Program-made: the position numbers and the translations under genes
The notes under the pieces: model-generated
Seen by the model: the letters and a program-made list of their open reading frames with translations, nothing else
Told to the model about the DNA's origin: nothing
Database searches by the model: none
Source: Patescibacteria group bacterium UBA6201
Lineage (GTDB): Bacteria > Patescibacteriota > Minisyncoccia > Phycocordibacterales > UBA918
Direction of reading: 5' to 3'
Length of the DNA stretch: 64,000 nt
NCBI GenBank assembly: GCA_002422025.1
Contig: DISV01000004.1
Location: 102,578-166,577 of the forward strand
Part shown: positions 4,342 through 64,000 of the stretch, one piece after another
Layout of the letters: each line of letters begins with the position of its first letter
Position numbering within the stretch: the stretch's first letter is position 1

Positions 4342-4983
4342 TCATGATATCACATTCCTTTTAGTTAGAATGTGGACAAGCATTATACCAATAATGGCGC
4401 CGCCAAAGTTAAAAACAAGGTCCAACATAGCGTTTTCATAGCCTCCAACGCCATGACGATCTAGATTCATTGCAATTAAGAATTCCATTATTTCATTCAT
4501 TGCTGACACACCCATTGAGGCCATTATAGCTATAAGTATCAGTATCCACTTAGGTCCAGTAGCTCTAAGGGTACAAGTGAGGACGTGCAGAAAGGCTATG
4601 GCCATAACACCATACAGATAGCCGTGCACCACCTGATCATATTTTAGAATGTATAAATCCTCACCCAAATCAAGAAAAGGATAGATGCGGTATGCAAACA
4701 AAACCCCGTCTGGTGTTTGTACAGAACCACCTAAAATATGCAGAAGGCCCCAGATACTTATTAGCCACAGTATGTATGATGGAAACTTGGTTATATGAAG
4801 CGTGCTAAAAAGTAAGGTAAAGGCCGCAATAATGACGCCAGCATAAATCACAAATTCAACATTGGAATCTTGAAGAAAATATGCGCCGCCAACCAACAAA
4901 TACAGGGCGATGAAGCCAAGCAAAAAGCGGTGTTCTGACAGTCGCATAGATTTAGGTAATGATGCTAAAAACTTCGCGTGCAA
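4342..4983 (-). CDS. Hypothetical polytopic membrane protein (about 6 TM; DUF2238/YjdF-like guess)
   Basis: 213-aa highly hydrophobic ORF directly downstream of the previous gene. Confidence 0.55.
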   Translation of the reverse strand: MHAKFLASLPKSMRLSEHRFLLGFIALYLLVGGAYFLQDSNVEFVIYAGVIIAAFTLLFSTLHITKFPSYILWLISIWGLLHILGGSVQTPDGVLFAYRIYPFLDLGEDLYILKYDQVVHGYLYGVMAIAFLHVLTCTLRATGPKWILILIAIMASMGVSAMNEIMEFLIAMNLDRHGVGGYENAMLDLVFNFGGAIIGIMLVHILTKRNVIS

Positions 4984-5162: not shown

Positions 5163-5528
5163 GAAAACCGCCTAATGGCGGCTTTTCTATTGCGCGAGCG
5201 AAGGGACTTGGTCACGAATATTTTCCTGCGTAAAATTTCTCGACCCCACCTCGCTTGCCTACGGCATCGCTCCGGCCTTCAAGCCCCTACACAAGCAAAG
5301 CAGTTTGCTTGTTTCGTTCGCGCAAACAAAAAAACGGCATGAAGCCGTATTTTGTTTGCGCGAGCGAAGGGACTTGAAACTTACAGTTTCGGTACACCTT
5401 TTGGCTGTTTCTGTTCACAAGCTCCAGAAATATCTCAAAAGGTCTTCAAGTCCCTACACAAAAGTCTCCCAGATTTTTGTTTCGCTCGCACAAAGTAAAA
5501 GCCCCCTAGTGGGGACTTTTATACTTTG
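5163..5528 (-). repeat. Three tandem modules (hairpin plus 20-24 nt copy of the tRNA-Asp 3' end) downstream of tRNA-Asp
   Basis: gcgcgagcgaagggacttg occurs at 5193-5211 and 5359-5377 and again as the genuine tRNA 3' end at 5528-5546; each copy is preceded by a GC hairpin; there are also inverted degenerate acceptor copies (cgttcgcgcaaac). Confidence 0.6.
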
Positions 5529-6028: not shown

Positions 6029-6227
6029 ATGTATACAACGTTAAATTGTCCAAAGATTGTACCACTTACTGCACAAAAGTCCAGCGATATATCTCCATAA
6101 AAGGAGACTAAAATTTAGGTGATTTCGAGGCGCGCGAGGAAAATGACACGAGCCGTATATATGGACATACGGTGAGTGTTATTTTACCGAAGCGCAACAA
6201 AGAAAGCGACAAATTTTTGGCTTCTGG

Positions 6228-6869
6228 CTAGATGAAGTTGAACTCGTCGAACACCATTTTATATTCAGCCACCGTCTGCGTGGCCTCCTTCTTGCTCAAA
6301 TTAAAATCCGCCCCTTCGTGTGCAATACGGTTTCTAACATTATGGGCGCGCCATGCTTGATTAATAGTCGTGAAAGAAGCCGGAGACACACTTTTAAGTT
6401 TTTCACTAATAGTAGCACCGGCGTATCCTAAAGTATTTAAAAGTTCGTCCAAAATTATATCGGCCTCAATAATGGCAAGCTTCCAGTCATTGGGTCGGTC
6501 ACTATCACTGTGAGTAAGTACGTCCTGCCAACGCATATTCTTCACATCTTTTCGATATATCTTAGTAAAAGCTTCCTCCTGCCTCTTTAAGATTTCAGCA
6601 AATACTTCACCAAGCTGGTTGTGGCGAATGTAAGCATAAATAATGCCAAAGATAAGCAAGAATGAAAGTAACCAAGACAGTACGACAAACACGCTCCATG
6701 CATCAGAAAGCCAAGCAAACACCGCGCCGGGTGACCAACCTGAAATCACTCCATTTGCACTACCGCCACTCGCAGCCCCACCACCAAATAAGAAAGCAAT
6801 TGCGTAATCTATGAACGCAAAGAAATCCAGCGAATACTCGTTAAACAAGATGTCGTTTGAATCGGGCAC
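6228..6869 (-). CDS. Membrane-anchored protein with C-terminal HEPN/DUF4145-like domain
   Basis: N-terminal Gly-rich region and TM segments, then a soluble domain containing AHNVRNRIAHEG (Rx4H HEPN motif, DUF4145-like). Confidence 0.5.
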   Translation of the reverse strand: MPDSNDILFNEYSLDFFAFIDYAIAFLFGGGAASGGSANGVISGWSPGAVFAWLSDAWSVFVVLSWLLSFLLIFGIIYAYIRHNQLGEVFAEILKRQEEAFTKIYRKDVKNMRWQDVLTHSDSDRPNDWKLAIIEADIILDELLNTLGYAGATISEKLKSVSPASFTTINQAWRAHNVRNRIAHEGADFNLSKKEATQTVAEYKMVFDEFNFI

Positions 6870-8708: not shown

Positions 8709-10874
<2,166 letters not shown>

Positions 10875-11079
10875 TTATTTTTCACGTATCGACAAAGTTC
10901 CGCGCCACTTCCAATACCTTATTTATTAAACGCCAAAATCGAGGGCAGTTGCAGTGCGGTCTAAAACTTAAAAATGGATGAGTGGCGAGGAGTTTAGGTG
11001 AACGAGTTGCGAGTGGGACATATTGTCCAGCGAGCAACACGTTAGCCGTAACGACAAAGCCAATCGCCATTTTTAAGTT

Positions 11080-11736
11080 TTAGTACTCGATGGTGATTTC
11101 GCGTTGGATAGTAAAGATAGAATCCAACTGATCACAAGGACGATTGTAGCCTCTAGCAAACACTACAGTGCAGATAGTTCCTGCTGTACATTCAATTGTG
11201 CCTAAACCTTCACCAGTGAGATTATAAGTAAGATCAGTAGTGGCCTCACGTAAGTCAGCAATATAAAGACTCGGTTCTGCACATTTGGCGCCATTGAGTG
11301 TGTATTGATATTTATAGTTATACAAAAGCTGACCACTACTGTTGAATAAAGTTGTGGCCTGTACTCCGGGAGGATTATTCGGATTCACTCCAGCACAAGC
11401 TAGCGATGGTGGCTGTGCCCCACCTTCCTTAAGTAACGCGCTCTTAGTAGTGGGCTGCGCTCGATGGTAACGCATACACTCAAGTCCAATCTGGGCAGAT
11501 TGAAATGATTTTTCTGATTCAATAGCAGTTACCGCCAAAAGATATTGTTTAGTGGTAACAAAAAGTAGCGACAAACCGATAGCCAATACCACACTCACAA
11601 CCACTAAAGTGATGAGTAGGGCGAAACCTTGGTTAGCTTTCGGGGCCGCTTCGCGTCCGGACGCATAAAATTGCCAAACGATTTTACGCAAACGGGTAAC
11701 TAAAAGTTTAAAACTAAAAACTGATTTAAGGTTCAT
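11080..11736 (-). CDS. Minor pseudopilin-like protein (prepilin-type N-terminus without Glu5)
   Basis: ANQGFALLITLVVVSVVLAIG hydrophobic N-terminal helix; last gene of the pseudopilin run. Confidence 0.45.
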   Translation of the reverse strand: MNLKSVFSFKLLVTRLRKIVWQFYASGREAAPKANQGFALLITLVVVSVVLAIGLSLLFVTTKQYLLAVTAIESEKSFQSAQIGLECMRYHRAQPTTKSALLKEGGAQPPSLACAGVNPNNPPGVQATTLFNSSGQLLYNYKYQYTLNGAKCAEPSLYIADLREATTDLTYNLTGEGLGTIECTAGTICTVVFARGYNRPCDQLDSIFTIQREITIEY

Positions 11737-12400
11737 AATACGTATTATAGATATAGCTTTCGAGTACCACACTATCAGAAGGACCATCGCCCCAAGACAC
11801 TTCTGACTGTACCCTCGCCAACGAATTATCTACAGAGATAGAGAGTTCACGTGTGTAGGCAGTAGCTGTTCCGCCGGAAGCACGTTGCTTAAGTGGAACA
11901 CGAGCGCCACTATGTTCGTTGATAACACAGTTACTACCACTACAACGATAAAAACTACTAGTTGTAACAGAGCCGTCTTCTGCGATTTGTACCCCACAAC
12001 GATTTGTACCTCCTACGGGACATAATGAAGCTATGGTGGTCATATTATTCCAAACCTCACCCAGGTTACTATATGTGCTTGCGTCCAACGCATCGTCCTC
12101 ACGTAACTTAACCAAGGCCTCAATACCCTCTTGTGCTAAAAAGACTGCCAAGGTGTTATCTTTTGATTGATTAGCTCTTTTGAGTCCAGAATGTGCGATA
12201 GTGAGCGGACCAACCAGTGCGATTAAGAGTACCGTAATAGCCACTAACACCTCAACGAGAGAATAACCTCTGTGGTGGTTAAGGGTTAGAAGTTTAGGGT
12301 CTAGTGATGCTTTGCCTCTAGACGCAGACACGAAAAATCGCAAAGCTATTTTTCTTAAGCTCTGTACTAGGTACTGCGTGTTGTGTACTAACATAATCAT
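11726..12400 (-). CDS. Type IV pseudopilin (prepilin N-terminal cleavage/methylation domain)
   Basis: RGYSLVEVLVAITVLLIAL class-III signal motif after a long leader. Confidence 0.6.
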   Translation of the reverse strand: MIMLVHNTQYLVQSLRKIALRFFVSASRGKASLDPKLLTLNHHRGYSLVEVLVAITVLLIALVGPLTIAHSGLKRANQSKDNTLAVFLAQEGIEALVKLREDDALDASTYSNLGEVWNNMTTIASLCPVGGTNRCGVQIAEDGSVTTSSFYRCSGSNCVINEHSGARVPLKQRASGGTATAYTRELSISVDNSLARVQSEVSWGDGPSDSVVLESYIYNTYYEP

Positions 12401-14790: not shown

Positions 14791-15210
14791 CTAAGAAGCT
14801 GGACAAGCAGTTCCAGCGCCGAGTGCGCTTGTAACTATTCGAGCGACACCAGTACTATCAACACAATAATATTGTGCAGTGTTAGACATTAGTTGAGCGG
14901 ACATGGCCCAAACCAACGGAGTATCGTTACAATCAACAACTGCACTGCCAGAGGTACCAGCTGCTACTTTCATAGTAGTGATGCCGGTAGTTGCGGTGCA
15001 TACACCGTCGTAAGAACGACTATTGTCGTCATAGTAAAGTTCAGCTTGAGCCCGAGAATTGTTAAGGTTTGATTTGATAGCAGCATCTGCTCCCTTATCA
15101 CGAGCGCTATTAAGTGATGCCAACACCACTGAGGCCAAGATACCGATGATGGCAATGACCACGAGGAGCTCGATGAGGGTAAAGCCGCGGCTAGATGTTT
15201 GTTTAATCAT
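14791..15210 (-). CDS. pilA: Type IVa major pilin paralogue 1
   Basis: Leader MIKQTSSRG|FTLIELLVVIAIIGILASVV; first about 120 nt of the mature region are identical to the next gene. Confidence 0.8.
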   Translation of the reverse strand: MIKQTSSRGFTLIELLVVIAIIGILASVVLASLNSARDKGADAAIKSNLNNSRAQAELYYDDNSRSYDGVCTATTGITTMKVAAGTSGSAVVDCNDTPLVWAMSAQLMSNTAQYYCVDSTGVARIVTSALGAGTACPAS

Positions 15211-15347
15211 AAAATGTAAAATAATTTTCCTTACGTTCATTTTACACCCTACACTGTGAAACATTTGAATGTGTGTGAATAACTAGGAACAAAAAAACAG
15301 CAAGCAATCAAGCTCACTGTTTTTTCCTAAACTAAACTCCTAACTAG

Positions 15348-15743
15348 TTAAGGACAAGTTGTAGCTCCTGTAGTAACTGACGCTGTAGCGGTAGTAGTAG
15401 CGGTTCCAGTTGAGTCTACACAGTATGTGGAAGTAGTAGCGCTCGAGAGAGAAGCAAAAGCTGCCCATACGTCTGCCGTATCATTACATTCACCACCAGC
15501 TGCGCTTACACCTTGTGCAACGTTAGAATCAGCACAAACATTTAAATAACTACCGTTATCATCGTAAAACAATTCAGCTTGCGCACGAATGTTATTAAGG
15601 TTGGACTTGATAGCGGCGTCCTCTCCCTTGTCGCGAGCGCTATTAAGTGATGCCAACACCACTGAGGCCAAGATACCGATGATGGCAATGACCACGAGGA
15701 GCTCGATGAGGGTGAAACCTCTTTTAAGTGTGTTCTTAATCAT
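15348..15743 (-). CDS. pilA: Type IVa major pilin paralogue 2
   Basis: Leader MIKNTLKRG|FTLIELLVVIAIIGILASVVLASLNSARDKG; Thr/Ala-rich variable C-terminus. Confidence 0.85.
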   Translation of the reverse strand: MIKNTLKRGFTLIELLVVIAIIGILASVVLASLNSARDKGEDAAIKSNLNNIRAQAELFYDDNGSYLNVCADSNVAQGVSAAGGECNDTADVWAAFASLSSATTSTYCVDSTGTATTTATASVTTGATTCP

Positions 15744-15949
15744 ATAACTAATTACTTTATAACTTACCTGCTCCAGACATCAGCTGCGTGTCTTGAACAG
15801 GACATCCGTTTAATGGATACTATCAATTCTATAGTTATTCTTGGCCACTTAGATAAATGAGTGTGGATAAGACCAGTTTTTTAATCAAGATACTTTTGAT
15901 TGGGGCCTAATTTTTTAGACTTAAAAAATTAGGTGGAGCTATGTTTAAC

Positions 15950-16081: not shown

Positions 16082-17290
16082 TTAGATAGCGGCGGTCATA
16101 TTGTAGATAGGCATCAAGACAGATGCCAACAAAGTACCCACACCAACACCCAAGAGAACAATCATCACTGGCTCAATCAGTCCAATCAGGGTATCAACAG
16201 CGTTATTCACCTCACGTACATAGAAGGTAGCCAACGTCTTCATAATCTCCGAAAGATTACCGGTCTCTTCTCCGACCTTAGCCATCTGAGAAAGCACACC
16301 AGGAATCTCTGGATACTCAGAAATCGCATCAGCAAACGACCGGCCACCTTTTACTTCCACTAAAGTGTTCTGTAGAATTTCTTTAAAGACTGCATTATCT
16401 ACCACTTCAGCCGTTACCTCGAGTGCCTGCACCATGGAGATTCCACTTTGGAGCATCGTGGCCAAGTTGTCACAGATGCGGGCTAGGTAAAGCTTTTGAT
16501 AAAGATCTCCTATGTAAGGCAGGGTGATTTTCAACTCATCGAAGGCCCTTTGTCCGACTGGAGTCTTTAAGAAACGCCACAGAAATACTCCACCAATAGA
16601 AGCTAGTGCCAGCATTACTCCTATGTAATCAGTAAGGACAGTTGAAATGGCTATAACGATTTTGGTATAGATAGGTAGTTCCTGACCGGAGTCAATGAGA
16701 ATTTGACTAATACGTGGAATCACCATCGTAAGCATAAGTCCCATCACGAGGATGAATACTCCAACAACAAAGGCTGGGTAAACAAGAGCATTTTTAGCTT
16801 TAGTTACTACCTGGTAAGTACGGTCTAGGTAATCTGCCAAATAACCGAACGACTGTTCTAAAGAACCAGATTCTTCTCCGGCCCTAATCATATTTATATA
16901 GAAATCACTAAAGACATCAGGGTGTGCGGATAGAGAACGTGAGATTGAACTACCAGCCTGCAAATCATCAGCAATATCATTCAACACCATCTGCATCTGT
17001 GGATTTTCCGCCTCAGTACCCAATAGGCGAAATATGCGGAGTGCCGATACCTGAGCATCAAAAAGAGTGGCGAGCTGGCGAGAAAGTATAACTACTTCCT
17101 TGTTTGATATTCTTTGAAACCAAGTAATTTTAAAATTTAAAAGCTGTTGCTTTTCCTCTACCGGATCAATCGATATGACTGTATAACCGCGTTTTTGTAC
17201 GGTCGCAATGGCCGCATCGATATTACCAGCTTCGACAATACCTTCGCGTTTAACGTTAGTTTGATCAATGGCCTTATAAGAAAACAACAT
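16082..17290 (-). CDS. pilC: Type IV pilus platform protein PilC (GspF family)
   Basis: 402 aa, two T2SS-F repeats, three TM segments. Confidence 0.9.
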   Translation of the reverse strand: MLFSYKAIDQTNVKREGIVEAGNIDAAIATVQKRGYTVISIDPVEEKQQLLNFKITWFQRISNKEVVILSRQLATLFDAQVSALRIFRLLGTEAENPQMQMVLNDIADDLQAGSSISRSLSAHPDVFSDFYINMIRAGEESGSLEQSFGYLADYLDRTYQVVTKAKNALVYPAFVVGVFILVMGLMLTMVIPRISQILIDSGQELPIYTKIVIAISTVLTDYIGVMLALASIGGVFLWRFLKTPVGQRAFDELKITLPYIGDLYQKLYLARICDNLATMLQSGISMVQALEVTAEVVDNAVFKEILQNTLVEVKGGRSFADAISEYPEIPGVLSQMAKVGEETGNLSEIMKTLATFYVREVNNAVDTLIGLIEPVMIVLLGVGVGTLLASVLMPIYNMTAAI

Positions 17291-17577
17291 AGATATAGTT
17301 TAAAGTTAAAAGCTGAAAGTTGAAAGGCGTGGAGCTGTGTTTAACTTTGCCGTATCCTAACCGAAGATTTTTAGACGCAGTTGCACCAGTGCGAGGTAGT
17401 TTAGGGAGGAAGACGTGAGGTGTGGATACATTTAACAATTTGGATTGTTAAACTTTTTAAATTGGAGGAAATTCGACGGTTTGCAGGAGTTTTTGTGACC
17501 AAGGCGTAGATTGACCTACGGTGCGGGAGCAAAAACTTCGAAAACCTAGGATTTACCCAATTTTGGAAGTTTAGGAT
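17291..17577. repeat. Composite dispersed repeat (Q plus R modules) filling the pilC-pilT spacer
   Basis: gtgaccaaggcgtagattgacctacggtgcggg...cctaggatttaccc is near-identical to 54120-54215 and 51100-51160. Confidence 0.55.
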
Positions 17578-18648
17578 TTATATGAGGCGCTCTAATCCTT
17601 TAGGATTAACCGAGTAAGCAAAAGCATTCTCAACTGTAATCTCGCCCTTCTTAACTAACTCAACTAACGACCGGTTCATATCAATCATTCCGTGCTCAAG
17701 ACCAGTTTCAATCACCGTTTGTACTTCATGGGTACGCCGTTCACGAATCAGGTTAGAAACTGCACTGTTGTTGATTAAAAGTTCATAAGTAGGAATCAAT
17801 CCACCTTGAATACGAGGAATCAAACGTTGTGAAAAGATACCAGTAAGCGACCCTGCCAACTGCACACGTATCTGATCCTGCTGACCAGCTGGGAAACTAT
17901 CAATAATACGATCAATCGTTTGAGCAGCATTGTTGGTATGGAGGGTTGAAAATACCAAGTGTCCAGTCTCAGCAGCAGTCACCGCTGTCGAAATCGTCGC
18001 TGGATTACGCATTTCTCCCACTAAAATAACGTCGATGTCCTGACGAAAAACAGCATTAAGACCAGAAGCAAAATCGACAGTATCGGTACCGACCTCACGT
18101 TGCTCGATTAGAGCTTGGTCAGCTGTATAAACATATTCAATCGGATCTTCAATAGTCACAATGTGATCAGGACGACTCTTATTAATCATCTGAATCATCG
18201 ACGCTAGAGTAGTAGACTTACCTTGTCCGACCGGACCCACACAAAGAAAGAATCCTTGTGGTCTTTCGGTAAAACTCGCTAATATTGGTGGCAAATTTAA
18301 CTCTTCTAAGGACTTGATATCGTTTGGAATATGACGGAGTGCAATAGCTGGAGTACCCTGCTGATGATAAGCATTGCCACGGAAACGCACACCGTCTGAA
18401 GCAGCAAAAGAAAAGTCTACCTCTTTGGTTGCTGTAAAGTTAGTCTGCTTTTGCTCTGTCAACAAGATTCCACAAAAACCCATCACGTCTTCAGAGGTTA
18501 AAACTGGCTTCTTTACCAAAGGCACCAAGGAACCCATTACTCTAACCGCAGGATGTGTTCCAACTGACAAGTGTATGTCAGAACCCTTTTCAGACACCAC
18601 TATATCTATTAAATCTGTTAATTCTCTTCTGTAATCTACATTGGCCAT
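17578..18648 (-). CDS. pilT: Twitching-motility retraction ATPase PilT
   Basis: Walker A GPVGQGKSTT, PilT/PilU-type AAA+ domain, 356 aa. Confidence 0.9.
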   Translation of the reverse strand: MANVDYRRELTDLIDIVVSEKGSDIHLSVGTHPAVRVMGSLVPLVKKPVLTSEDVMGFCGILLTEQKQTNFTATKEVDFSFAASDGVRFRGNAYHQQGTPAIALRHIPNDIKSLEELNLPPILASFTERPQGFFLCVGPVGQGKSTTLASMIQMINKSRPDHIVTIEDPIEYVYTADQALIEQREVGTDTVDFASGLNAVFRQDIDVILVGEMRNPATISTAVTAAETGHLVFSTLHTNNAAQTIDRIIDSFPAGQQDQIRVQLAGSLTGIFSQRLIPRIQGGLIPTYELLINNSAVSNLIRERRTHEVQTVIETGLEHGMIDMNRSLVELVKKGEITVENAFAYSVNPKGLERLI

Positions 18649-29052: not shown

Positions 29053-29140
29053 ACATCCACAGTATAGAGCATGTGTAATACTCTGTCTCCGCGAACAAAA
29101 CAGAATCACCCAACACTTGTGTGTTGGGCTGATTGTTTTG

Positions 29141-29227
29141 CGGAGGATGTGAGATTCGAACTCACGGGCAGTTTTACCCGCCGGCGGTTTAGTAAACCGC
29201 TGGTTTAAACCACTCACCCAATCCTCC
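29141..29227 (-). tRNA. Type II (long variable arm) Ser-like tRNA with apparent anticodon ACU
   Basis: Acceptor GGAGGAT/ATCCTCC, 3-bp D-stem GGT/ACC, anticodon arm GCGGT-TTACTAA-ACCGC, variable stem GGCGG/CTGCC, T-arm GTGAG-TTCGAAT-CTCAC. Confidence 0.5.
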
Positions 29228-29299: not shown

Positions 29300-29481
29300 C
29301 ACGGGGACGGAAGGAGGGATTCAGTCACGAATAATTTTGTAATACAAAATTTTCTCGACCCCAGCTCGCTGGCCTGCGGCATCGCTCCGCTTTTCGAATC
29401 CCTCCGTAAAGCAAAGCAGTTTACTTTACTCCTTTTCCGCCCAATAAAATAACCACCCTAGTGGGTGGTATTTTATACGGG
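29300..29481 (-). repeat. tRNA-associated repeat also present at the tRNA-Asp locus, plus partial and inverted copies of the tRNA-Ser 3' end
   Basis: aaaattttctcgaccccagctcgctggcctgcggcatcgctccg matches 5234-5277 with 3 mismatches; gacggaaggagggattc is a copy of the tRNA 3' end. Confidence 0.55.
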
Positions 29482-44936: not shown

Positions 44937-45139
44937 TTTAAGGGGGGTTTTGCTGTATATTTCTACCACTTTTGTCGCTTCTCACGACAGAGAACCCCGA
45001 ACCTTGAACTGCCGTGATTTCACGAAATTGGATGCAGTTCGAGGCGGACAAGGAAAATAATGTGAGCGGGACAAAATAGTCCAGTGAGCATTATATTACG
45101 AAGTCCAACAAAGAAATGTGCCAATTTCGTTGAATCACT

Positions 45140-45331
45140 ATGAAAACTAACAAATCTTATACAAAGAGAATAAAAGTCACGAAAAACGGCAAGCTCGTTG
45201 CTCGTAAGCCTGGCCAAAACCACTTTAATGCACGCCAGACTGGTCAACAAAGACTTCGTCGCAAGCGAACACAGCTGTTGAATTTGAGTAAGAAGATTAC
45301 CAGACGTTTCCTACCAGGCACCGGAGCCTAG
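45140..45331 (+). CDS. rpmI: 50S ribosomal protein bL35
   Basis: 63-aa Lys/Arg-rich protein in the infC-rpmI-rplT arrangement. Confidence 0.75.
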   Translation: MKTNKSYTKRIKVTKNGKLVARKPGQNHFNARQTGQQRLRRKRTQLLNLSKKITRRFLPGTGA

Positions 45332-45505
45332 TCTCCAAAACCAGCGAATTTGTACCGGTTTCGGTCGCTTCACTTGGTCGTCGTAGGTTTACTACGTCTT
45401 CCGCTTGAAGCTCCCTCCAACCGGCACAACTTCATCCGGTTTTGAAAACTAGCAATAATTATCGCTAGTACTAGAAACTTTAAACTGAAAACTAACAACT
45501 AATTT

Positions 45506-45850
45506 ATGTCACGTGTAAAAGGAGGATTGATGGCTCAAAAACGCCGTCGTAACATCCTCGAACAAGTAAAAGGATACCGTTTCGGTCGCTCTAAGAAAAA
45601 GCGTCAGGCCATTGAAGCAATTCATCACTCTGGACTTCACTCTTTCGCTCACCGTAAGGATAAGAAGGCTGACTACCGTTCACTCTGGATTACCCGTATC
45701 AACGCTGCCTTGAAGGCACAAGGTCTCCAATACAGCCGTTTTGTAAAGGCGATGAAGGATAAGGGATTCGCAGTTGATCGTAAAATCCTCGCTACTCTAG
45801 CTAAGGATAAGCCGGAAGTATTTCAACGAGTTGTTGACCAAGTTAAGTAA
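45506..45850 (+). CDS. rplT: 50S ribosomal protein bL20
   Basis: MSRVKGGLMAQKRRRNILEQVKGYRFGRSKK is a classic L20. Confidence 0.9.
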   Translation: MSRVKGGLMAQKRRRNILEQVKGYRFGRSKKKRQAIEAIHHSGLHSFAHRKDKKADYRSLWITRINAALKAQGLQYSRFVKAMKDKGFAVDRKILATLAKDKPEVFQRVVDQVK

Positions 45851-46034
45851 AGTTTCCAAAATCAGGTAAATTCTAGGACTTCAGAAATTTTGCTCGTCGC
45901 CGTATGTTGAATACGGCTCGCTCTCAAAACTTCCTCCAGTCCGTCGAATTTCCACTAATTTTGAAAGATTTAACGAAACCCCGCGCCTAGGCGCGGGGTT
46001 TTTGCTTATTTGTTATTTCTAGTAGGACTGACAC

Positions 46035-50754: not shown

Positions 50755-50934
50755 ACATTAGCAGATTTTGGTCCGTCCGTAAAACCACTGACTTGTCCAA
50801 AGGCAAGTCAGGCCGGGTGGTTTTGCTATCTAAGGAATTACCCGCCGGTAATACTGATTTATAAGTTTACTGCCGTAAACATTGATAGTAAACAAAGAAT
50901 GGCGAGCCTCTAGCTCGCCATTCTTTATTCTAAA

Positions 50935-51156
50935 CCTGTGAAATTGGATGCAGTTGTATTGGTACTCCGAAGTCAAAACTTCGAAAATTGGAGGAAATCC
51001 GACGGGTTGGAGGAATTTTGGCGACAGAGCGACCAAGAAAATAAGGAGTGTGCAACACGACTATATTTTCTGAAGTACTCCCTGTAGTGCCTTAGACCAA
51101 CTAAGGTGACCGAGACAAAATTCCGAAACCCTAGGATTTACCCGATTTTGGGAGTT
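50935..51156. repeat. Composite dispersed repeat (Q plus R) between the NMP kinase gene and secY
   Basis: gaaattggatgcagttg...ggaggaaatccgacgggttggagga...ccctaggatttacccgatttt. Confidence 0.55.
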
Positions 51157-52425
51157 TTAGTATTCGCGCATGGAGACTTGCGCATCAACTCGGCGCAACA
51201 GATCCAACACCACTGACACCACAATCAAGAGCGCAGTACCACCAATAGCGAGAGCTGCAATACCGGTCACCATTTTCATACCAAGTGGTAAGACTGCCAC
51301 TAGACCAAGAAATAGTGCTCCTACTAAGGTGAGACGAGTAATCAGTCCTCCTAGGTATTCAGCAGTCGCTGCACCTGGACGGAGTCCAGGTACGAATGCT
51401 CCACTGCGCTGTAGGTTCTTCGATACAGCATCTGGATCAAAGGTTACAGCTGTGTAGAAGAAAGCAAACATGATAACCAACACGAAGTAGACTAGCGCGT
51501 AAGCAAGCTGATTATTAAAGAAGACTAAAAGTAATTCAGATGCTCTGGCTACTCCGGCAATATTAAAGCTCGAAAGGACGTTAAGAAGCATTTGTGGAAA
51601 GAGCAATATCGACATAGCAAAGATAATTGGTATGACGCCTGCCTGATTGAGACGCAGTGGCAAGTATGAAGATGTGCCACCGTAGGTCGTACCACCTCGG
51701 CTCTGTTTTGCGTAAGTAATTGGTACTGGACGCTCCGCCTCAGTCATCACCACCACCGCATAGATAGTAGCGAGCGCAATCAGACCAAAACCAAGGTAAA
51801 GTGGTAATTGTGCTGGAGTATACCCGAAAGCGAGTTGACTCGCTGTGGCAGGAAGTCCTGCAACGATACCAGCGAAAATGAGGATTGAAACACCATTACC
51901 GATACCGTACTCTGTGACTAATTCACCAATCCACATAAGAAGGACAGAACCAGCAACAATTAAGACAACGTTAGTCAAGAAAGCAAAAGTAGACAATCCA
52001 CTAATCACTCCCTGACTCTGAAGTAGAGTCAGGAAACCATAACCTTGCAGGACACCGAGTGGCAAAGTGAGCAGACGTGCATACTGAGTAAAACGAGCTC
52101 GTCCCGCCTCCCCTTCTTCGGTGTGCATGCTCTTCAGTTTTGGTGACATCACAGTCAACAACTGCATAATGATTGAAGCAGTAATGAAAGGTCCAACACC
52201 GAGCATGATGATGGACAAGTTTGCCAGACCACCACCAGAGAAGATGTTAAGGAGTCCCAAGAATTGATTGTTCGCGAAAAATTGCTGCAATACTACCGCG
52301 TCGACTCCTGGAATAGGAATGGTCGACAGGGCTCTGAATATAAATAGTGCACCGAGTACGAATAGTAGACGGTTACGGATACCTTCATCGGTGAACGCTA
52401 TTTTCAGTTTATGTAGGAATTTATT
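51157..52425 (-). CDS. secY: Preprotein translocase SecY
   Basis: 10 TM segments; start taken at MNKFLHKLKIAF. Confidence 0.9.
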   Translation of the reverse strand, partial: NKFLHKLKIAFTDEGIRNRLLFVLGALFIFRALSTIPIPGVDAVVLQQFFANNQFLGLLNIFSGGGLANLSIIMLGVGPFITASIIMQLLTVMSPKLKSMHTEEGEAGRARFTQYARLLTLPLGVLQGYGFLTLLQSQGVISGLSTFAFLTNVVLIVAGSVLLMWIGELVTEYGIGNGVSILIFAGIVAGLPATASQLAFGYTPAQLPLYLGFGLIALATIYAVVVMTEAERPVPITYAKQSRGGTTYGGTSSYLPLRLNQAGVIPIIFAMSILLFPQMLLNVLSSFNIAGVARASELLLVFFNNQLAYALVYFVLVIMFAFFYTAVTFDPDAVSKNLQRSGAFVPGLRPGAATAEYLGGLITRLTLVGALFLGLVAVLPLGMKMVTGIAALAIGGTALLIVVSVVLDLLRRVDAQVSMREY

Positions 52426-52526
52426 CATAGAATCAAGTATAAAGTTAAAAGTGGAAAGTGGAAAGCTGGCTCTTAACCCCAAGGTGGTGGTTTGTCGCCC
52501 TGTAGCTAGCCTTAGACTTTCAGCTT

Positions 52527-52976: not shown

Positions 52977-53040
52977 GATATTAATTTAGAGTTTAAAGTG
53001 AAAAGTTATAAAGTAGTTGATTGCTTCCAACTTTATAAAC

Positions 53041-54099: not shown

Positions 54100-54226
54100 T
54101 ATTTAAACTTAGGAAATTGGATGAAATCCGACGGGCTGGAGAAGATTTTGTGACCAAGGCGTAGATAGACCTACGACGCGGAAACAAAATCTTTGAAGCC
54201 CTAGGATTTCGCCGATTTCATATTGT
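54100..54226. repeat. Dispersed repeat (R module) between rplF and rplR
   Basis: ggaaattggatgaaatccgacgggctggagaagattttgtgaccaaggcgtagatagacctacgacgcgg...ccctaggatttcgcc. Confidence 0.55.
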
Positions 54227-54760
54227 TTAAACGGCTTTCTTACCTTGCTTACGAATAATATATTCACCCTGATAGCGAATACCCTTGCCCTTATAAGGCT
54301 CTGGCTTTTTCACCTTGCGCACGTCAGCCGCAAATTGACCAACGATCTCCTTATCGACTCCTGTTACTGTTACAACACCCTTCTCTACCACTACAGTGAC
54401 TCCTTCTGGAATCACCATCTCCACTGGGTGCGAGAAACCCATAAGAAGTACGAGTGTGTTTCCTTTAACTTCAGCACGATAGCCAACTCCTTCAATTTCC
54501 AATATTTTTTTGAATCCGTCAGTAACTCCGGTCACCATGTTTCGAGCATGCGCTGCGTAAGTACCCCAAAGGGCACGAGCCGCAATACTACCTTCCTTTG
54601 GAGAGAAGGTGATAGTGTTTCCTTCCATCTTAAGTTCAACATCATCCTTAATCGGACGTGACAAAGAAGTGTTTCCCTTTTTCACAGTCAAGATACCACC
54701 TTCAAAAGTAGCTTCGACGCCAACAGGCAATATTACTGGTTGTTTTCCTAAACGACTCAT
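54227..54760 (-). CDS. rplF: 50S ribosomal protein uL6
   Basis: MSRLGKQPVILP... start. Confidence 0.9.
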   Translation of the reverse strand: MSRLGKQPVILPVGVEATFEGGILTVKKGNTSLSRPIKDDVELKMEGNTITFSPKEGSIAARALWGTYAAHARNMVTGVTDGFKKILEIEGVGYRAEVKGNTLVLLMGFSHPVEMVIPEGVTVVVEKGVVTVTGVDKEIVGQFAADVRKVKKPEPYKGKGIRYQGEYIIRKQGKKAV

Positions 54761-55573: not shown

Positions 55574-55612
55574 AAGCCCCGCGCCAGAGGTGACGCGGGG
55601 CTTTTCTTTTTG
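55574..55612. terminator. Strong GC hairpin inside the spc operon, between rplE and rpsN
   Basis: aagccccgcgccagaggtgacgcggggcttttcttttt; T-runs on both strands. Confidence 0.45.
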
Positions 55613-59197: not shown

Positions 59198-59596
59198 ATA
59201 GATAAAACGCTAAGGCTGGTCTGAAATAAGGAAGTTTGTTTAAAATCAATGAGATGCAAGGCGGATGAGGAAAATAATGCGAGGTGAACTTAACGTTCAG
59301 AGAGCTTTATTTTCCGAAATCCAACGCAGCAGATCGTGATTTTAAACTGACTTCTAAGTCAGAAGCCCGTGTGGAAGAAGGTAACGGCCTACCCCACACG
59401 AGTTCCCGACAAGTAGTGATGAACCTGTGCCGACCCGCCCTGCCAGGGGCTTTCGGGCATCAGTTCGGAACGGGGGCTATAGTACGGGATTGTGTATAAA
59501 AAGTCAACAACCTACTAACCAACGGCCTACAACTTTTCGATTGCCAGCATGATATCTTTATAACAGACAGAATAGATGCCAACAGAGGAGCGAAAA

Positions 59597-59815
59597 ATGG
59601 CACCAAAAACAAAACGTCTGAGCTTGGACAAAAAGTGTAAGATTACCCAACAACTGAGCGCACCCAGAAGCAGTGTCAGACAACTGGCCGATTGGCATCG
59701 TCGCGACGGTGAAGGTCCCGTTCCTGAAGTGGTAAAAAAGGCGGTGGAACGATACCGCACGATTTCACCTGAAATCAGGACAAAAGGCAGGCTCATAATC
59801 AGCCGACATAAAGAC
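59597..59815 (+). CDS. Hypothetical 72-aa HTH-like protein (transposase N-terminal-like) inserted between rpsS and rplB
   Basis: SD agaGGAGcgaaaaATG; MAPKTKRLSLDKKCKITQQLSAPRSSVRQLADWHRR...; hairpin terminator at 59840-59873. Confidence 0.4.
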
Positions 59816-59884
59816 TAGCCAGTAGATTGGCCCACAACGCAAAGCGCCGGACAATTTGTCCGGCGCTTTATACGTTGTATTTAC

Positions 59885-60017
59885 AAGAAACTTAAAACTT
59901 TCTAAATGAGATGAAGTTGCGTTTGCTGGAGGGAGGAGCTGCGAGCGAGCCGTATTTAACATACGGTGACGAGCAGTCCGACTGAAGCAAATGCAAATTC
60001 GCTCATTTAGGAATGTT
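59885..60017. repeat. Dispersed repeat (Q family) upstream of rplB
   Basis: gagatgaagttgcgtttgctggagggagg...gagccgtatttaacatacggtgacgag...cgactgaagcaaatgcaaattcgc. Confidence 0.55.
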
Positions 60018-62198: not shown

Positions 62199-62828
62199 TT
62201 AGGCAGCAGCTCTTACCTCTACTAGAGTCCCCTTTCGACCAGGGATTGCTCCCTTTACGAGGATTGTATTCTCTTCAGCGTTTACCTGAACGATTTTAAG
62301 GTTCTTAACCGTTATACGGTCAGAGCCCATACGTCCAGCCATACGCATACCCTTGATAACACGTCCTCCATCACGTCCTCCACCTCCAATAGAACCTGGA
62401 GCGCGGAGTGAGTGCTTACGTCCGTGAGAGGCCATGTCTCCAGCAAAACCGTGACGCTTGACCACACCCTGAAAGCCCTTACCCTTTGAGATGGCTGACA
62501 CAGTAACAGTGTCACCTGGAGCAAAAACTGAAGAATCAATTGTTGCACCTACCTCTACTCCATCAAGTTTTTCTCCTTGTGAAGCACGGGCACGAAACTC
62601 CTTCACGTAGCGCTTAGCGCCACCTTGGTGACCAAGATCAGCCTTACCAAGACGTGATTCCTTTTGCTCACCACCTGCTACTTGTACAGCGTCGTAACCA
62701 TCTTTCTCAGACGATTTCACAGCCGTTACAACCAGTGGAGTGACCCGAAGGATGGTCACAGGGAAACAAGTTCCCTTTTCATCAAAGACTTGAGTCATCT
62801 TGTCTTTAGTGCCTAAAATGAATTTCAT
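62199..62828 (-). CDS. rplC: 50S ribosomal protein uL3
   Basis: 209 aa; no rpsJ ORF in the 309-bp upstream spacer. Confidence 0.9.
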   Translation of the reverse strand: MKFILGTKDKMTQVFDEKGTCFPVTILRVTPLVVTAVKSSEKDGYDAVQVAGGEQKESRLGKADLGHQGGAKRYVKEFRARASQGEKLDGVEVGATIDSSVFAPGDTVTVSAISKGKGFQGVVKRHGFAGDMASHGRKHSLRAPGSIGGGGRDGGRVIKGMRMAGRMGSDRITVKNLKIVQVNAEENTILVKGAIPGRKGTLVEVRAAA

Positions 62829-63137
62829 TCAATCAGGGCAGGGCTCCAAAATTAGCGAATTTCTTCGTTATGCTTCACAAATTGACACTCACTGGACTAA
62901 TTGTTGTCCCACTCGTGACAATTTGCTCACACATCTCGAACTTCATCCAATTTTAAATCCCTGCAATTTAGTTAATAAATGTCTCTGACCAGAAACGGGT
63001 AATAAAAAACACGTTCCAGGACACAGCCACGAAACGCGGATAGTGCCCATTGGTTCTCAAGGATGCAAGCATCCCGTCATCGAACTTAGGTCTTGAAGAC
63101 CGCTGTACTATATCGCTTATTAGCAAAAAAGCAAGGG

Positions 63138-64000
63138 TTAGGTGTCTGTACTAAACCGTACATAAATCCCAGTGGGGACTATACGCTTTGAGGATACTTC
63201 TTGAATACTAAGTGAGCCAAAAGTGCCTGAAACCTTATCAAAAACACTTTCTACTGCTTGAGCAAAGGATTCGGAAGCAAAGCCAGCGGCATAACCAGAG
63301 AGCACCACGAATGAACCAGGTTTTTCAGAGAGAATCTCTTTAAGGTTTTTAAGGAGTGGAACTAAGTCTTCTTCGATGTGCCAGACCTGGCCCTTAGCAC
63401 CGCGACCAAAGGCCGGTGGGTCTAGGATAATGCCGTCGTACTTTGCCCCACGTCGTACTTCACGCTTTACGAAAGCGGCAGCATCGTCCACAATCCAACG
63501 AACGGAGTCATTAGCCAATTCGCTCGCCTTAGCGTTTTCACTCGCCCACTCCATCGACTGCTTAGAGGAATCAACATGGGTCACTTTGGCTCCAGCCTTG
63601 GCTACGGCGAGTGTGGCGGCACCAGTGTAGCCGAAAAGATTAAGAACACTTGGCGACTCATTTCCCTTCTTCATACCCTTAACCTTTTCCATTATCCAAG
63701 ACCACTGACTAGCGTGTTCAGGGAAAAGCCCAACATGCTTAAAGGAGGTGAAGTGAAGTTTGAAAGTAAGGTCTTCAAAGACTACCTGCCAATCAACCGG
63801 AGTGTCATCGTGAAGAGTCCACTTCCCATCCTTTGTTTCAGAGGTAAATTTAGCTTGTGCCTGTGACCACAATTCAGGCTTGAGCGGGGACCAAATAGCT
63901 TGCGTGTCTGGTCTGTCGGTGATGATTTTACCAAAGCGCTCGAGCTTCCGCCCATTTCCTGAATCAATCAGTTCGTAGTCAGGCCAAGATTTAGTTGTGA
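63138..64000 (-). CDS. Class I SAM-dependent rRNA methyltransferase (RlmI/COG1092-like), 5' end beyond the window
   Basis: GYTGAATLAVAKAGAKVTHVDSS (SAM motif I) and ILDPPAF (motif IV); the frame stays open upstream of the listed TTG start through to the window edge. Confidence 0.65.
   Translation of the reverse strand, partial: TTKSWPDYELIDSGNGRKLERFGKIITDRPDTQAIWSPLKPELWSQAQAKFTSETKDGKWTLHDDTPVDWQVVFEDLTFKLHFTSFKHVGLFPEHASQWSWIMEKVKGMKKGNESPSVLNLFGYTGAATLAVAKAGAKVTHVDSSKQSMEWASENAKASELANDSVRWIVDDAAAFVKREVRRGAKYDGIILDPPAFGRGAKGQVWHIEEDLVPLLKNLKEILSEKPGSFVVLSGYAAGFASESFAQAVESVFDKVSGTFGSLSIQEVSSKRIVPTGIYVRFSTDT

Follow-up and report, generated by a model that had tools for sequence, protein, structure and literature searches.

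A stretch of 64,000 nucleotides (nt) from the Patescibacteria group bacterium UBA6201 (assembly GCA_002422025.1, contig DISV01000004.1, positions 102,578 to 166,577; hereafter the window, from whose first letter all positions are counted) contains approximately 14 copies of a repeat of about 130 nt that forms one long hairpin. The pairing of this hairpin is selected on the strand antisense to the flanking mRNAs, and one end of the repeat typically lies on the stop codon of the neighboring gene. On balance, we favor the interpretation that the family consists of small non-autonomous mobile hairpin elements that comprise two sister lineages (A and B) and have spread among a group of Patescibacteria. 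These bacteria have tiny streamlined genomes that are thought to be poor in repeats; by an estimate from the coordinates (~14 copies of ~130 nt), about 3% of the 64-kb core-gene region sampled here belongs to this single hairpin family, with its members lodged inside operons for ribosomal proteins, secY, pili and translation factors.

The units of the family were sorted into the B type (8 copies in the window), the sister A type (5-6 copies) and three remnants. A covariance model (CM) built from 69 B-type copies and run on the window with filters off yielded a strong group of seven matches (105-122 bits, E 1e-25 to 5e-30) and a weak group of six (32-38 bits, E 3e-7 to 9e-6), while a strict 62-nt search pattern, which imposes the loops TGGA, AG.YGTA, TACGRYG and YGAAR, occurs five times as against 0.00 expected from 100 shuffles. 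A preliminary description of the window, made by inspection of its letters, had listed 11 loci as a dispersed family of about 11 copies. The family is real, with each of the 11 loci holding a member as judged by the CM, an A-type hidden Markov model (HMM) and nhmmer, and seed-and-extend repeat finding connects them. The count was too low: seed-and-extend added two reverse-strand copies near 45.4 and 45.9 kb, and the full copies at 45323-45453 and 45844-45972, as well as a weak A-type copy at 10803-10913, had been missed. Other assemblies and metagenome contigs that carry the family are referred to by L-numbers (JACKGJ, a relative, is L058). Two of them, L001 and L002, are independent assemblies that are 100% identical to the window over the repeat region, which excludes an assembly artefact. 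The copies and their immediate setting are as follows, with ‘forward’ denoting the strand on which pairing is maintained and fold energies given in kcal/mol:

6099..6232, plus strand: A-type copy adjoining the stop of the minus-strand open reading frame (ORF) 6228-6869; CM 32.5 bits, A-type HMM 67.5 bits; fold -45.1 forward versus -28.9 reverse
10803..10913, plus strand: weak A-type-like copy that overlaps ligA at the annotated 5' end of its ORF; A-type HMM 43 bits
~10935-10959: remnant, putative B-type 5' fragment, read by eye against the L080 copy and without any model match
10960..11088, plus strand: A-type copy docked on the stop of ORF 11080-11787; CM 32.8 bits, A-type HMM 76.9 bits; orthologue in L078
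15958..16090, plus strand: full B-type copy whose 3' end abuts the pilC stop codon (16082-16084, minus strand; stop offset +4); CM 113.2 bits; fold -67.8 forward versus -51.1 reverse
17363..17416, plus strand: remnant, 5' half of an older B copy, stop-distal of the intact copy 17448..17578; nhmmer match to model positions 6-63, E 0.0017; direct-repeat families D5 and D9
17448..17578, plus strand: full B-type copy beside the pilT stop codon; CM 109.1 bits; fold -53.9 forward versus -32.0 reverse
45014..45142, plus strand: A-type copy between infC and rpmI, co-oriented with them; CM 34 bits, A-type HMM 90.4 bits; orthologue in L011
45323..45453, minus strand: full B-type copy docked on the plus-strand rpmI stop (TAG); CM 120 bits
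45844..45972, minus strand: full B-type copy docked on the rplT stop codon, followed by the terminator 45975-46002; CM 105.7 bits
45975..46002, no strand assigned: canonical GC-rich intrinsic terminator from the terminator scan, on the stop-distal side of the rplT-stop element; similar hairpins at 50896-50928 and 59834-59880
50930..50962, plus strand: remnant consisting of the 5' 33 nt of a B copy of the Q subtype; in L132, L045 and L055 that copy is intact at the same junction
50974..51159, plus strand: B-type variant whose apex carries an extra domain of ~70 nt (51030-51098), docked on the secY stop; nhmmer halves 50974-51029 and 51099-51159; local CM match of 33.9 bits (50995-51139, plus); a homologue of this variant in L066 is 79% identical
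54103..54233, plus strand: full B-type copy docked on the L6 stop at the L6/L18 junction; CM 105.6 bits; junction likewise occupied in L045, L028 and L035
59231..59358, plus strand: A-type copy antisense to the operon, 33 nt upstream of the S19 start; CM 32.1 bits, HMM 66 bits; orthologue in L057
59893..60023, plus strand: full B-type copy docked on the L2 stop codon; CM 112 bits; junction likewise occupied in L009, L041, L057 and L073
62067..62197, plus strand: full B-type copy at the L3/L4 junction; CM 122.4 bits; shared with L127, 90% identical
62834..62964, minus strand: A-type copy co-oriented with the operon, 5 nt upstream of the L3 start; CM 37.6 bits, HMM 76.8 bits

Each unit (~130 nt, 129-134 nt in the window) is a single imperfect hairpin. 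Its ends, AAAACTTYCAAAATTGG... and ...CCAATTTTGGAAGTTTT, are inverted repeats that form the base of the hairpin, and the outer stem is A/U-rich (AAAACUUUC...GGAAGUUUU). The basal stem, AAAUUGG-A-UGMAGUU / AAAUKCGCC-AAUUU, holds a bulged A and a conserved U.G pair; above it follow a variable stem, a conserved asymmetric UGGA / GA loop and a stem of 8-10 base pairs, and, toward the apex, short helices split by tandem G.A-type mismatches and an apical hairpin CGUA-N6-8-UACG. The A type shares the basal stem of the B type and differs in its core (CGAGGCG...GAG...GUGAG...AACAAAG), with the hairpin continuous, at 41-46 pairs, across both types. The preliminary description had divided the family into two modules, Q and R, each with short hairpins of its own; these can be aligned over their full length and are variants of a single ~130-nt hairpin rather than building blocks, and what was read as several short hairpins is one long hairpin in two sister families. 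The loci 17291-17577 and 50935-51156 are composite: each consists of a truncated older copy (17363-17416 and 50930-50962) followed by an intact one.

The fold is borne out by compensatory change, as the preliminary description had proposed to check with a covariance model. In the 69 B-type copies, 92.4% of the paired cells hold standard pairs, as opposed to 68.9% in column shuffles, and double-sided changes occur in 35 of the 43 pairs; the covariation score is 0.653 versus 0.215 in shuffles (none of 500 equaled it), with controls in which the partner was slid scoring 0.10-0.22. In 13 A-type copies, 40 of 46 pairs show compensatory changes. The invariance of the loops is partly imposed by the search pattern, unlike the covariation of the stems.

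Furthermore, this covariation is specific to one strand. At paired columns of the B-type alignment G-U outnumbers A-C by 253:42, so read on the forward strand, and about 9% of the pairs are G-U; for instance, pair 43-97 takes the GU, GC and AU states with a single AC, and pair 24-117 is U.G in 52 of the 69 copies. The forward fold is the stronger one in 68/69 copies (means of -57.9 versus -41.9 kcal/mol with RNA parameters; -30.3 versus -23.7 kcal/mol with DNA parameters), the alifold consensus is -43.8 kcal/mol forward and -20.0 kcal/mol reverse, and the strong window copies score 105-122 bits with the CM on the forward strand and 15-28 bits on the opposite one. Mutational skew should enrich G and T on the opposite strand, the leading or coding one; hence the G-U asymmetry is unlikely to be a by-product of skew. 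The structured-RNA alternative raised in the preliminary description is thus right as regards real covariation, while its picture of elements processed out of the polycistronic transcripts is unlikely as stated, because the strand selected for pairing is antisense to the flanking mRNAs.

The second defining feature is the placement of the copies relative to genes. The genes flanking them, as confirmed by Pfam, encode L3, L4, L2, S19, L6, L18, SecY, Adk, IF3, L20, PilC, PilT, pilins and LigA, and the earlier gene assignments at the inflated junctions, including the position of the element inside ribosomal-protein operons, are correct. These junctions measure 147 nt (L3/L4), 136 nt (L6/L18), 820 nt (L2/S19), 287 nt (pilT/pilC) and 402 nt (secY/adk). 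For the 99 copies on genome contigs, the element and the gene at its forward 3' end lie on opposite strands in 83/93 (about 90% of the informative copies). Counted from the last paired column, the end of the stop codon falls at +2 or +3 in 28/58 and between -2 and +5 in 47/58, and the docked stop codon is TAA in 47/58 (81%, versus a 54% baseline). The forward 3' end is precise: it ends in a U-run that overlaps the TAA by 2-3 nt, giving a typical junction NNT|AAAACTTCC, where the 3' end of the element abuts or overlaps the stop, usually as T|AAAAC. The opposite end of the element is spaced by 10-400 nt from the next gene. At operon ends the order is stop codon, element and then canonical GC-rich terminator, as also observed in L055, L077, L057 and L009. 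Copies co-oriented with both neighbors are few on the genome contigs (~6/99, ~6%) and lie 20-70 nt downstream of a stop codon. The bias was replicated in 78 independent metagenome loci, with 35 copies having both neighbors on the opposite strand versus 4 having both on the same strand, and with 43/58 docked within -4 to +16 nt. The A-type copies show a weaker orientation bias than the B type.

In the plus-strand infC-rpmI-rplT island of the window, both B copies are flipped along with the genes, at the rpmI and rplT stops. This favors an orientation coupled to the genes over one coupled to replication, on the evidence of this single locus, the window alone among the sequences examined having docked copies in both orientations. 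The promoter scan called no promoter upstream of the forward copies (promoter-like sites in the region number 21 versus 25.5 expected), and bidirectional terminators lie on their 5' side. Together these indicate that most copies cannot be transcribed as a forward RNA. Three other interpretations of the sequence were considered and set aside. An outward promoter at the sense 3' end is plausible in the L003 insert (TTTTCC-N17-TAAAAA) and not in general; a mini-ORF behind the forward Shine-Dalgarno-like UGGAGG lacks a conserved start codon, with GCG being the commonest triplet there; and the elements are not themselves intrinsic terminators, in that the terminator scan does not call them and separate canonical terminators adjoin them.

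Several other features were noticed in the window. Within the spc operon, downstream of L5, there is a terminator-like hairpin on the minus strand (55574-55603; 13 pairs, 9 of them G-C, then a T-run). The L2/S19 spacer has ~535 nt between its A- and B-type copies (59359-59892), which hold a GC-rich hairpin (59834-59880), a promoter-like site (59507-59479) and an 89-aa ORF without a Pfam match; a part of this segment (59358-59508) is conserved at 83% in L057. A motif of ~30 nt (CTTTCCACTTTCCACTTTTAACTTTATACT on the sense strand) recurs at 17297-17326, 52436-52465 and 52983-53012, ahead of the start codons of pilC, secY and L15. For secY and L15 the scan called a -35/-10 promoter there, with that of secY reading TTTCCA-N17-TATACT and its -10 ending ~7 nt before the ATG; this suggests internal promoters that yield leaderless mRNAs inside the ‘operon’. 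The longest ligA ORF (8709-10868) has ~50-110 N-terminal residues ahead of its first Pfam domain and overlaps the weak A-type copy at 10803-10913; translation probably begins at a more downstream position.

The family is not confined to this genome: dozens of related metagenome-assembled genomes (MAGs) of Patescibacteria, as well as metagenome contigs, carry it too. With the strict B-type pattern, 76 genome loci were recovered in a scan of one genome per species, and 78 loci in metagenomes; these 154 independent loci hold more than 200 copies (about 230 model matches). Thus, the copies are neither restricted to the window by an artefact nor without an alignable core, with 154 loci recovered and L001 and L002 identical to the window. 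Two of the 76 genome loci, from an archaeon and Poribacteria, are chance matches that the model rejects; all others are Patescibacteria MAGs, except for one mislabelled ‘Gammaproteobacteria’ bin with a variant hairpin base. The carriers, ~30 MAGs, several with many copies each, have conflicting NCBI labels (Nomurabacteria, Saccharibacteria, Kaiserbacteria, Paceibacterota, Minisyncoccia, Uhrbacteria and Kerfeldbacteria), and many share the gene order of the window, with 67-85% identity at the nucleotide level. The majority of the Patescibacteria species scanned are devoid of the family. The B type was not found in viral contigs, plasmids or phages; a blastn search with a B-type copy against 5,426 complete E. 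coli genomes gave no match; an Rfam cmscan of the whole window, at the gathering threshold and at E<=5, returned no family overlapping any copy, whether ribosomal-protein leaders, domain V-VI of group II introns, 6S, Y RNA or another; and a literature search retrieved no prior description in Patescibacteria or Saccharibacteria.

Comparison of orthologous junctions reveals gain, loss and replacement of copies. L003, which is ~90% identical to the window, carries at its S8/L6 junction a copy of 127 nt that begins at the stop codon and is antisense; the same site is empty in the window and in the outgroup JACKGJ (TGGTAA|TTATG). Comparison of this filled site with the two empty ones shows no target duplication of 2 nt or more, leaving a duplication of TA, TAA or TNA unsupported at this clean insertion. 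Thus, of the two hallmarks that the preliminary description had put forward for examination at the ends, terminal inverted repeats are present as the hairpin base, and target-site duplications are absent in L003 as set against the window and JACKGJ. Conversely, JACKGJ has lost the rpmI-rplT copy (45323..45453) that is present in the window, L011 and L068, and retains 10 nt of its stop-proximal end. At the secY stop, L132, L045 and L055 have a Q-subtype copy, where the window has an R-variant and a stop-distal Q remnant of 33 nt; likewise, the pilC stop is occupied by a different subtype in a relative of 81% identity. In all 5 of 5 cases the remnant is stop-distal of the intact copy. L063, L074 and L079 have copies in tandem, and L059 and L078 have nested or interrupted ones. 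Fragments are of both polarities, 5' and 3', with no excess of 5'-truncated copies. Finally, 77 pairs of copies have similar flanks, with the same junctions occupied in several genomes, some of which are only ~70% identical at the nucleotide level. Shared 5' tails of the kind left by retroposons were also considered: the shared 5' flanks are GC-rich terminator hairpins.

Other small repeats were encountered in these relatives. A second, unrelated palindromic family of L003 (1290-1406, 1759-1883 and 3065-3176; GGTTCTAGGTTCTAGG...two inner hairpins...CCTAGAACCTAGAACC), both strands of which fold about equally well, lies directly after the L6, L18 and L15 stops and, at the L6/L18 junction, takes the place of the B-type copy of the window. 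Stop-proximal sites of L003 equivalent to those of the hairpins are thus held by a different palindromic sequence (GGTTCTAGG...). In several genomes a segment of ~55 nt (…TCCATTTTTATACTCCTTCCAGTCGTTAAAACTTTGGTC), reading AAGGAG-N8-ATG on the sense strand, splits the 5' arm of B copies at one position (L059 ~640-700, L078 ~4640-4700, also L029, L060 and L073); it might represent another small element nested within the copies or the beginning of a very short gene.

Based on the above, we posit that the forward strand serves as a single-stranded intermediate, either DNA or RNA, and as the substrate of an enzyme whose gene would lie elsewhere in the genome. The covariation would then mirror selection for transposition competence, and the ends shared by the A and B types might be a common recognition region. 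Insertion would be directed to the A-rich sequence at TAA stop codons, with new copies landing on the stop-codon side of the intergenic space. The orientation bias could stem from the mechanism of insertion itself or from the loss of sense-oriented copies; such copies may be lost because, in the sense orientation, the stop codon of the mRNA would carry a hairpin of about -58 kcal/mol. Within mRNAs, the elements would ride passively as weaker hairpins, and some of them might have been co-opted by the host.

Several points weigh against mobility. The chief weakness is the mobilising enzyme: in the loci examined (8-14-kb neighborhoods around copies), no copy was seen to contain or adjoin a gene for a transposase, recombinase or reverse transcriptase. 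Neither was an autonomous version found in the ~1 Mb of loci, nor 5' and 3' halves placed around an ORF. The occupancy of the same junctions at ~70% identity, seen in the 77 pairs, may just as well be due to purifying selection on a host function. The purine-rich loops, the tandem G.A mismatches and the U.G pair at 24-117 look more like a protein-binding RNA than a transposon end, and the copies appear, as an impression, to be concentrated in highly expressed housekeeping operons, which would be unexpected for a purely deleterious parasite. Moreover, in the IS200/IS605 elements the folded active strand is on the lagging-strand template, that is, the sense strand for co-directional genes, the opposite of what is seen here. 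Copies that recur at the same junctions, together with loops resembling those of RNA, keep the functional readings alive. There is also a minor chance, perhaps one in five, that the family represents an undescribed form of bacterial mobility, in which a structured single strand is inserted at stop codons in a fixed orientation, or a forward RNA that is bound by a conserved Patescibacteria protein; the former could be a SINE-like (short interspersed element) retroposon primed on the A-run of TAA or an attC/IntI-like recombinase that acts on single-stranded DNA in core operons.

Selection by the host offers a different explanation of the same facts. The reverse-complement hairpin, located right after the stop codon, might be a cis-acting mRNA element that, like the REP and ERIC hairpins, blocks 3' exonucleases, provides a processing site, or isolates or couples the translation of neighboring cistrons. 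Its exact position at the stop codon and upstream of canonical terminators, the occupation of the same junctions across diverged genomes, its apparent commonness in ribosomal-protein and other highly expressed operons and the still stable sense-strand hairpin (mean -41.9 kcal/mol) are all consistent with this. We nevertheless consider it rather improbable: pairing is selected on the other strand (G-U:A-C 253:42), so that the conserved U.G becomes a C.A mismatch in the mRNA; the remnants beside intact copies and the replacement of subtypes imply that individual copies are not maintained; and most of the Patescibacteria species scanned do not have the family. A role of the hairpin at the DNA level, with the forward strand or an extruded cruciform at gene ends binding a nucleoid, topoisomerase or replication protein, would account for a fold that is specific to a non-transcribed strand and that is stronger in the forward direction with DNA parameters as well (-30.3 versus -23.7 kcal/mol), and REP/BIME elements provide a precedent in their binding of gyrase and IHF. 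This we regard as improbable to a greater degree, given the patchy taxonomic distribution, the gain, loss and replacement of copies among close relatives, and the likelihood that the folded strand, as the leading-strand template for co-directional genes, is rarely single-stranded.

That the forward strand acts as RNA, either by SINE-like retroposition, in which transcripts of a few sense-oriented master copies would be turned back into DNA at A-rich stop codons, or as an RNA that binds a conserved protein or the many antisense copies in mRNAs, draws on the ~9% of G-U pairs, the tandem G.A loops and the conserved U.G, which are typical of RNA, and on the precise U-run at the 3' end, whose overlap of 2-3 nt with TAA is reminiscent of priming by microhomology. 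The clean L003 insertion without a target duplication would fit as well, and the ~6 sense copies among the 99 of the genome-contig set, being 20-70 nt downstream of a stop codon, would be transcribed. Against it stand the scan that found no promoter upstream of the forward copies, the lack of a reverse transcriptase nearby in these loci, the presence of both 5' and 3' fragments with no excess of 5'-truncated copies, and the seemingly shared 5' tails that are terminator hairpins; furthermore, we know of no precedent for bacterial SINE-like retroposition. Hence, we hold this to be doubtful, on a par with the mRNA element. As for chance similarity or an assembly artefact, it is effectively refuted by the five occurrences of the pattern versus 0.00 in shuffles, the identity of L001, L002 and the window and the more than 200 copies in 154 loci.

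Other observations in the window are independent of the hairpin family. Direct repeats of 100-127 nt and 63-90% identity (39177-39303/39981-40107 and 39890-39991/40797-40898/41381-41482) precede successive plus-strand genes at 39.3, 40.1 and 41.6 kb and are unrelated to the hairpins. Two adjacent pilin-like genes with the N-terminal methylation motif share 203 nt at 82% identity (15012-15214 and 15545-15747), and are a tandem gene duplication. In the window no S10 gene precedes L3, and 326 nt (62828-63154) separate L3 from the methyltransferase gene, as against ~4.5 kb in L127 (6470-10980), which is 82-90% identical. ARAGORN called a tRNA-Ser with the unusual anticodon ACT (29140-29227) beside tRNA-Ser(GCT), and similar flanking repeats of ~57 nt are located at 5232-5288 and 29347-29403.

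If the elements are mobile, they offer a route to the enzyme that recognises them and a means of studying how essential operons tolerate insertions; if functional, they constitute a lineage-specific nucleic-acid structure with more than 200 examples. In either case, they will confuse gene calling, operon prediction and screens for non-coding RNA in these genomes. To our knowledge, the combination of strand-specific covariation, stop-codon docking and antisense orientation is not known for REP, ERIC or MITE (miniature inverted-repeat transposable element) families.

Among known systems, REPINs and REPs are extragenic, high-copy hairpins of ~100 nt that are moved by RAYT transposases, which are IS200-like Y1 enzymes (PMC3116915, PMC3733652). 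Like REPINs, the present elements are non-autonomous, insert into or beside resident copies and would keep their pairing by way of the mobile unit, with a presumed single-stranded intermediate and no target duplication expected. They differ from units made of two inverted REP palindromes of 20-40 nt in that their arms are not self-palindromic and are without the terminal GTAG/CGTC tag (GTAG occurs only in the apical stem, in about one-third of the copies), and in their Patescibacteria host; strict orientation and stop-codon docking have not been reported for REPINs. No RAYT gene was found in the 8-14-kb loci around copies, and no recurrent neighbor protein is transposase-like.

The ERIC/IRU elements of Enterobacteria and Vibrio are imperfect palindromes of 127 bp that are intergenic and transcribed, polymorphic in presence and absence and conserved across genera. 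The family resembles them in size, imperfect palindromy, location between cistrons (here of ribosomal-protein and pilus operons), polymorphism at orthologous sites and conservation across genera. It has no sequence similarity to them (the E. coli blastn search being negative), and whereas ERIC copies, which are found in either orientation, are considered to function as RNA within the transcript, the folded strand of the family is antisense and docked on the stop codon. Classical DDE-transposase-derived MITEs, for which, along with REPs, the preliminary description had noted a likeness, are matched to the extent that this is a dispersed hairpin family, and not in the manner of insertion, which is clean. 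Correia/NEMIS, RUP, BOX and other MITEs are likewise small, lie between genes, are transcribed together with these and can fold into long hairpins. They have terminal inverted repeats with TA or other target-site duplications, whereas the family has such repeats only as the hairpin base and no duplication; nor do they show a 6:1 G-U:A-C strand asymmetry. The palindrome-associated transposable elements (PATEs) of the IS200/IS605 group share strand-specific hairpins, insertion beside a short specific sequence without target duplication, and the lack of a classical terminal-repeat transposition signature; they have two separate subterminal hairpins in contrast to the one continuous hairpin here. 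Inspection of the alignment also set aside a kink-turn or box C/D motif (the GA of the UGGA/GA loop is on the non-bulged strand, and there is no NNN-GA on the bulged one) and domain V of group II introns (only AGCCGUA/UACGGU is shared).

The only close parallel in terms of logic is the attC site of integrons. This too is an imperfect palindrome (57-141 nt) right after the stop of the upstream ORF, with structure conserved over sequence, and its folded and used strand is the bottom one, complementary to the mRNA, as is that of the family. The attC cores RYYYAAC...GTTRRRY are absent, with only AAC/GTT fitting in the sense ends TAAAAC...GTTTTA; the neighbors are syntenic core genes (L2, L3, L6, secY, pilT and rplT) rather than cassettes, and neither an intI gene nor a cassette-array context was seen around the copies. 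By these comparisons, the family seems closest to REPINs or ERICs in kind and to attC in its strand logic, while departing from each in a defining property. It belongs with the dispersed palindromic intergenic repeats, among which it is distinguished by its lineage, its strand-asymmetric covariation and its docking on stop codons.

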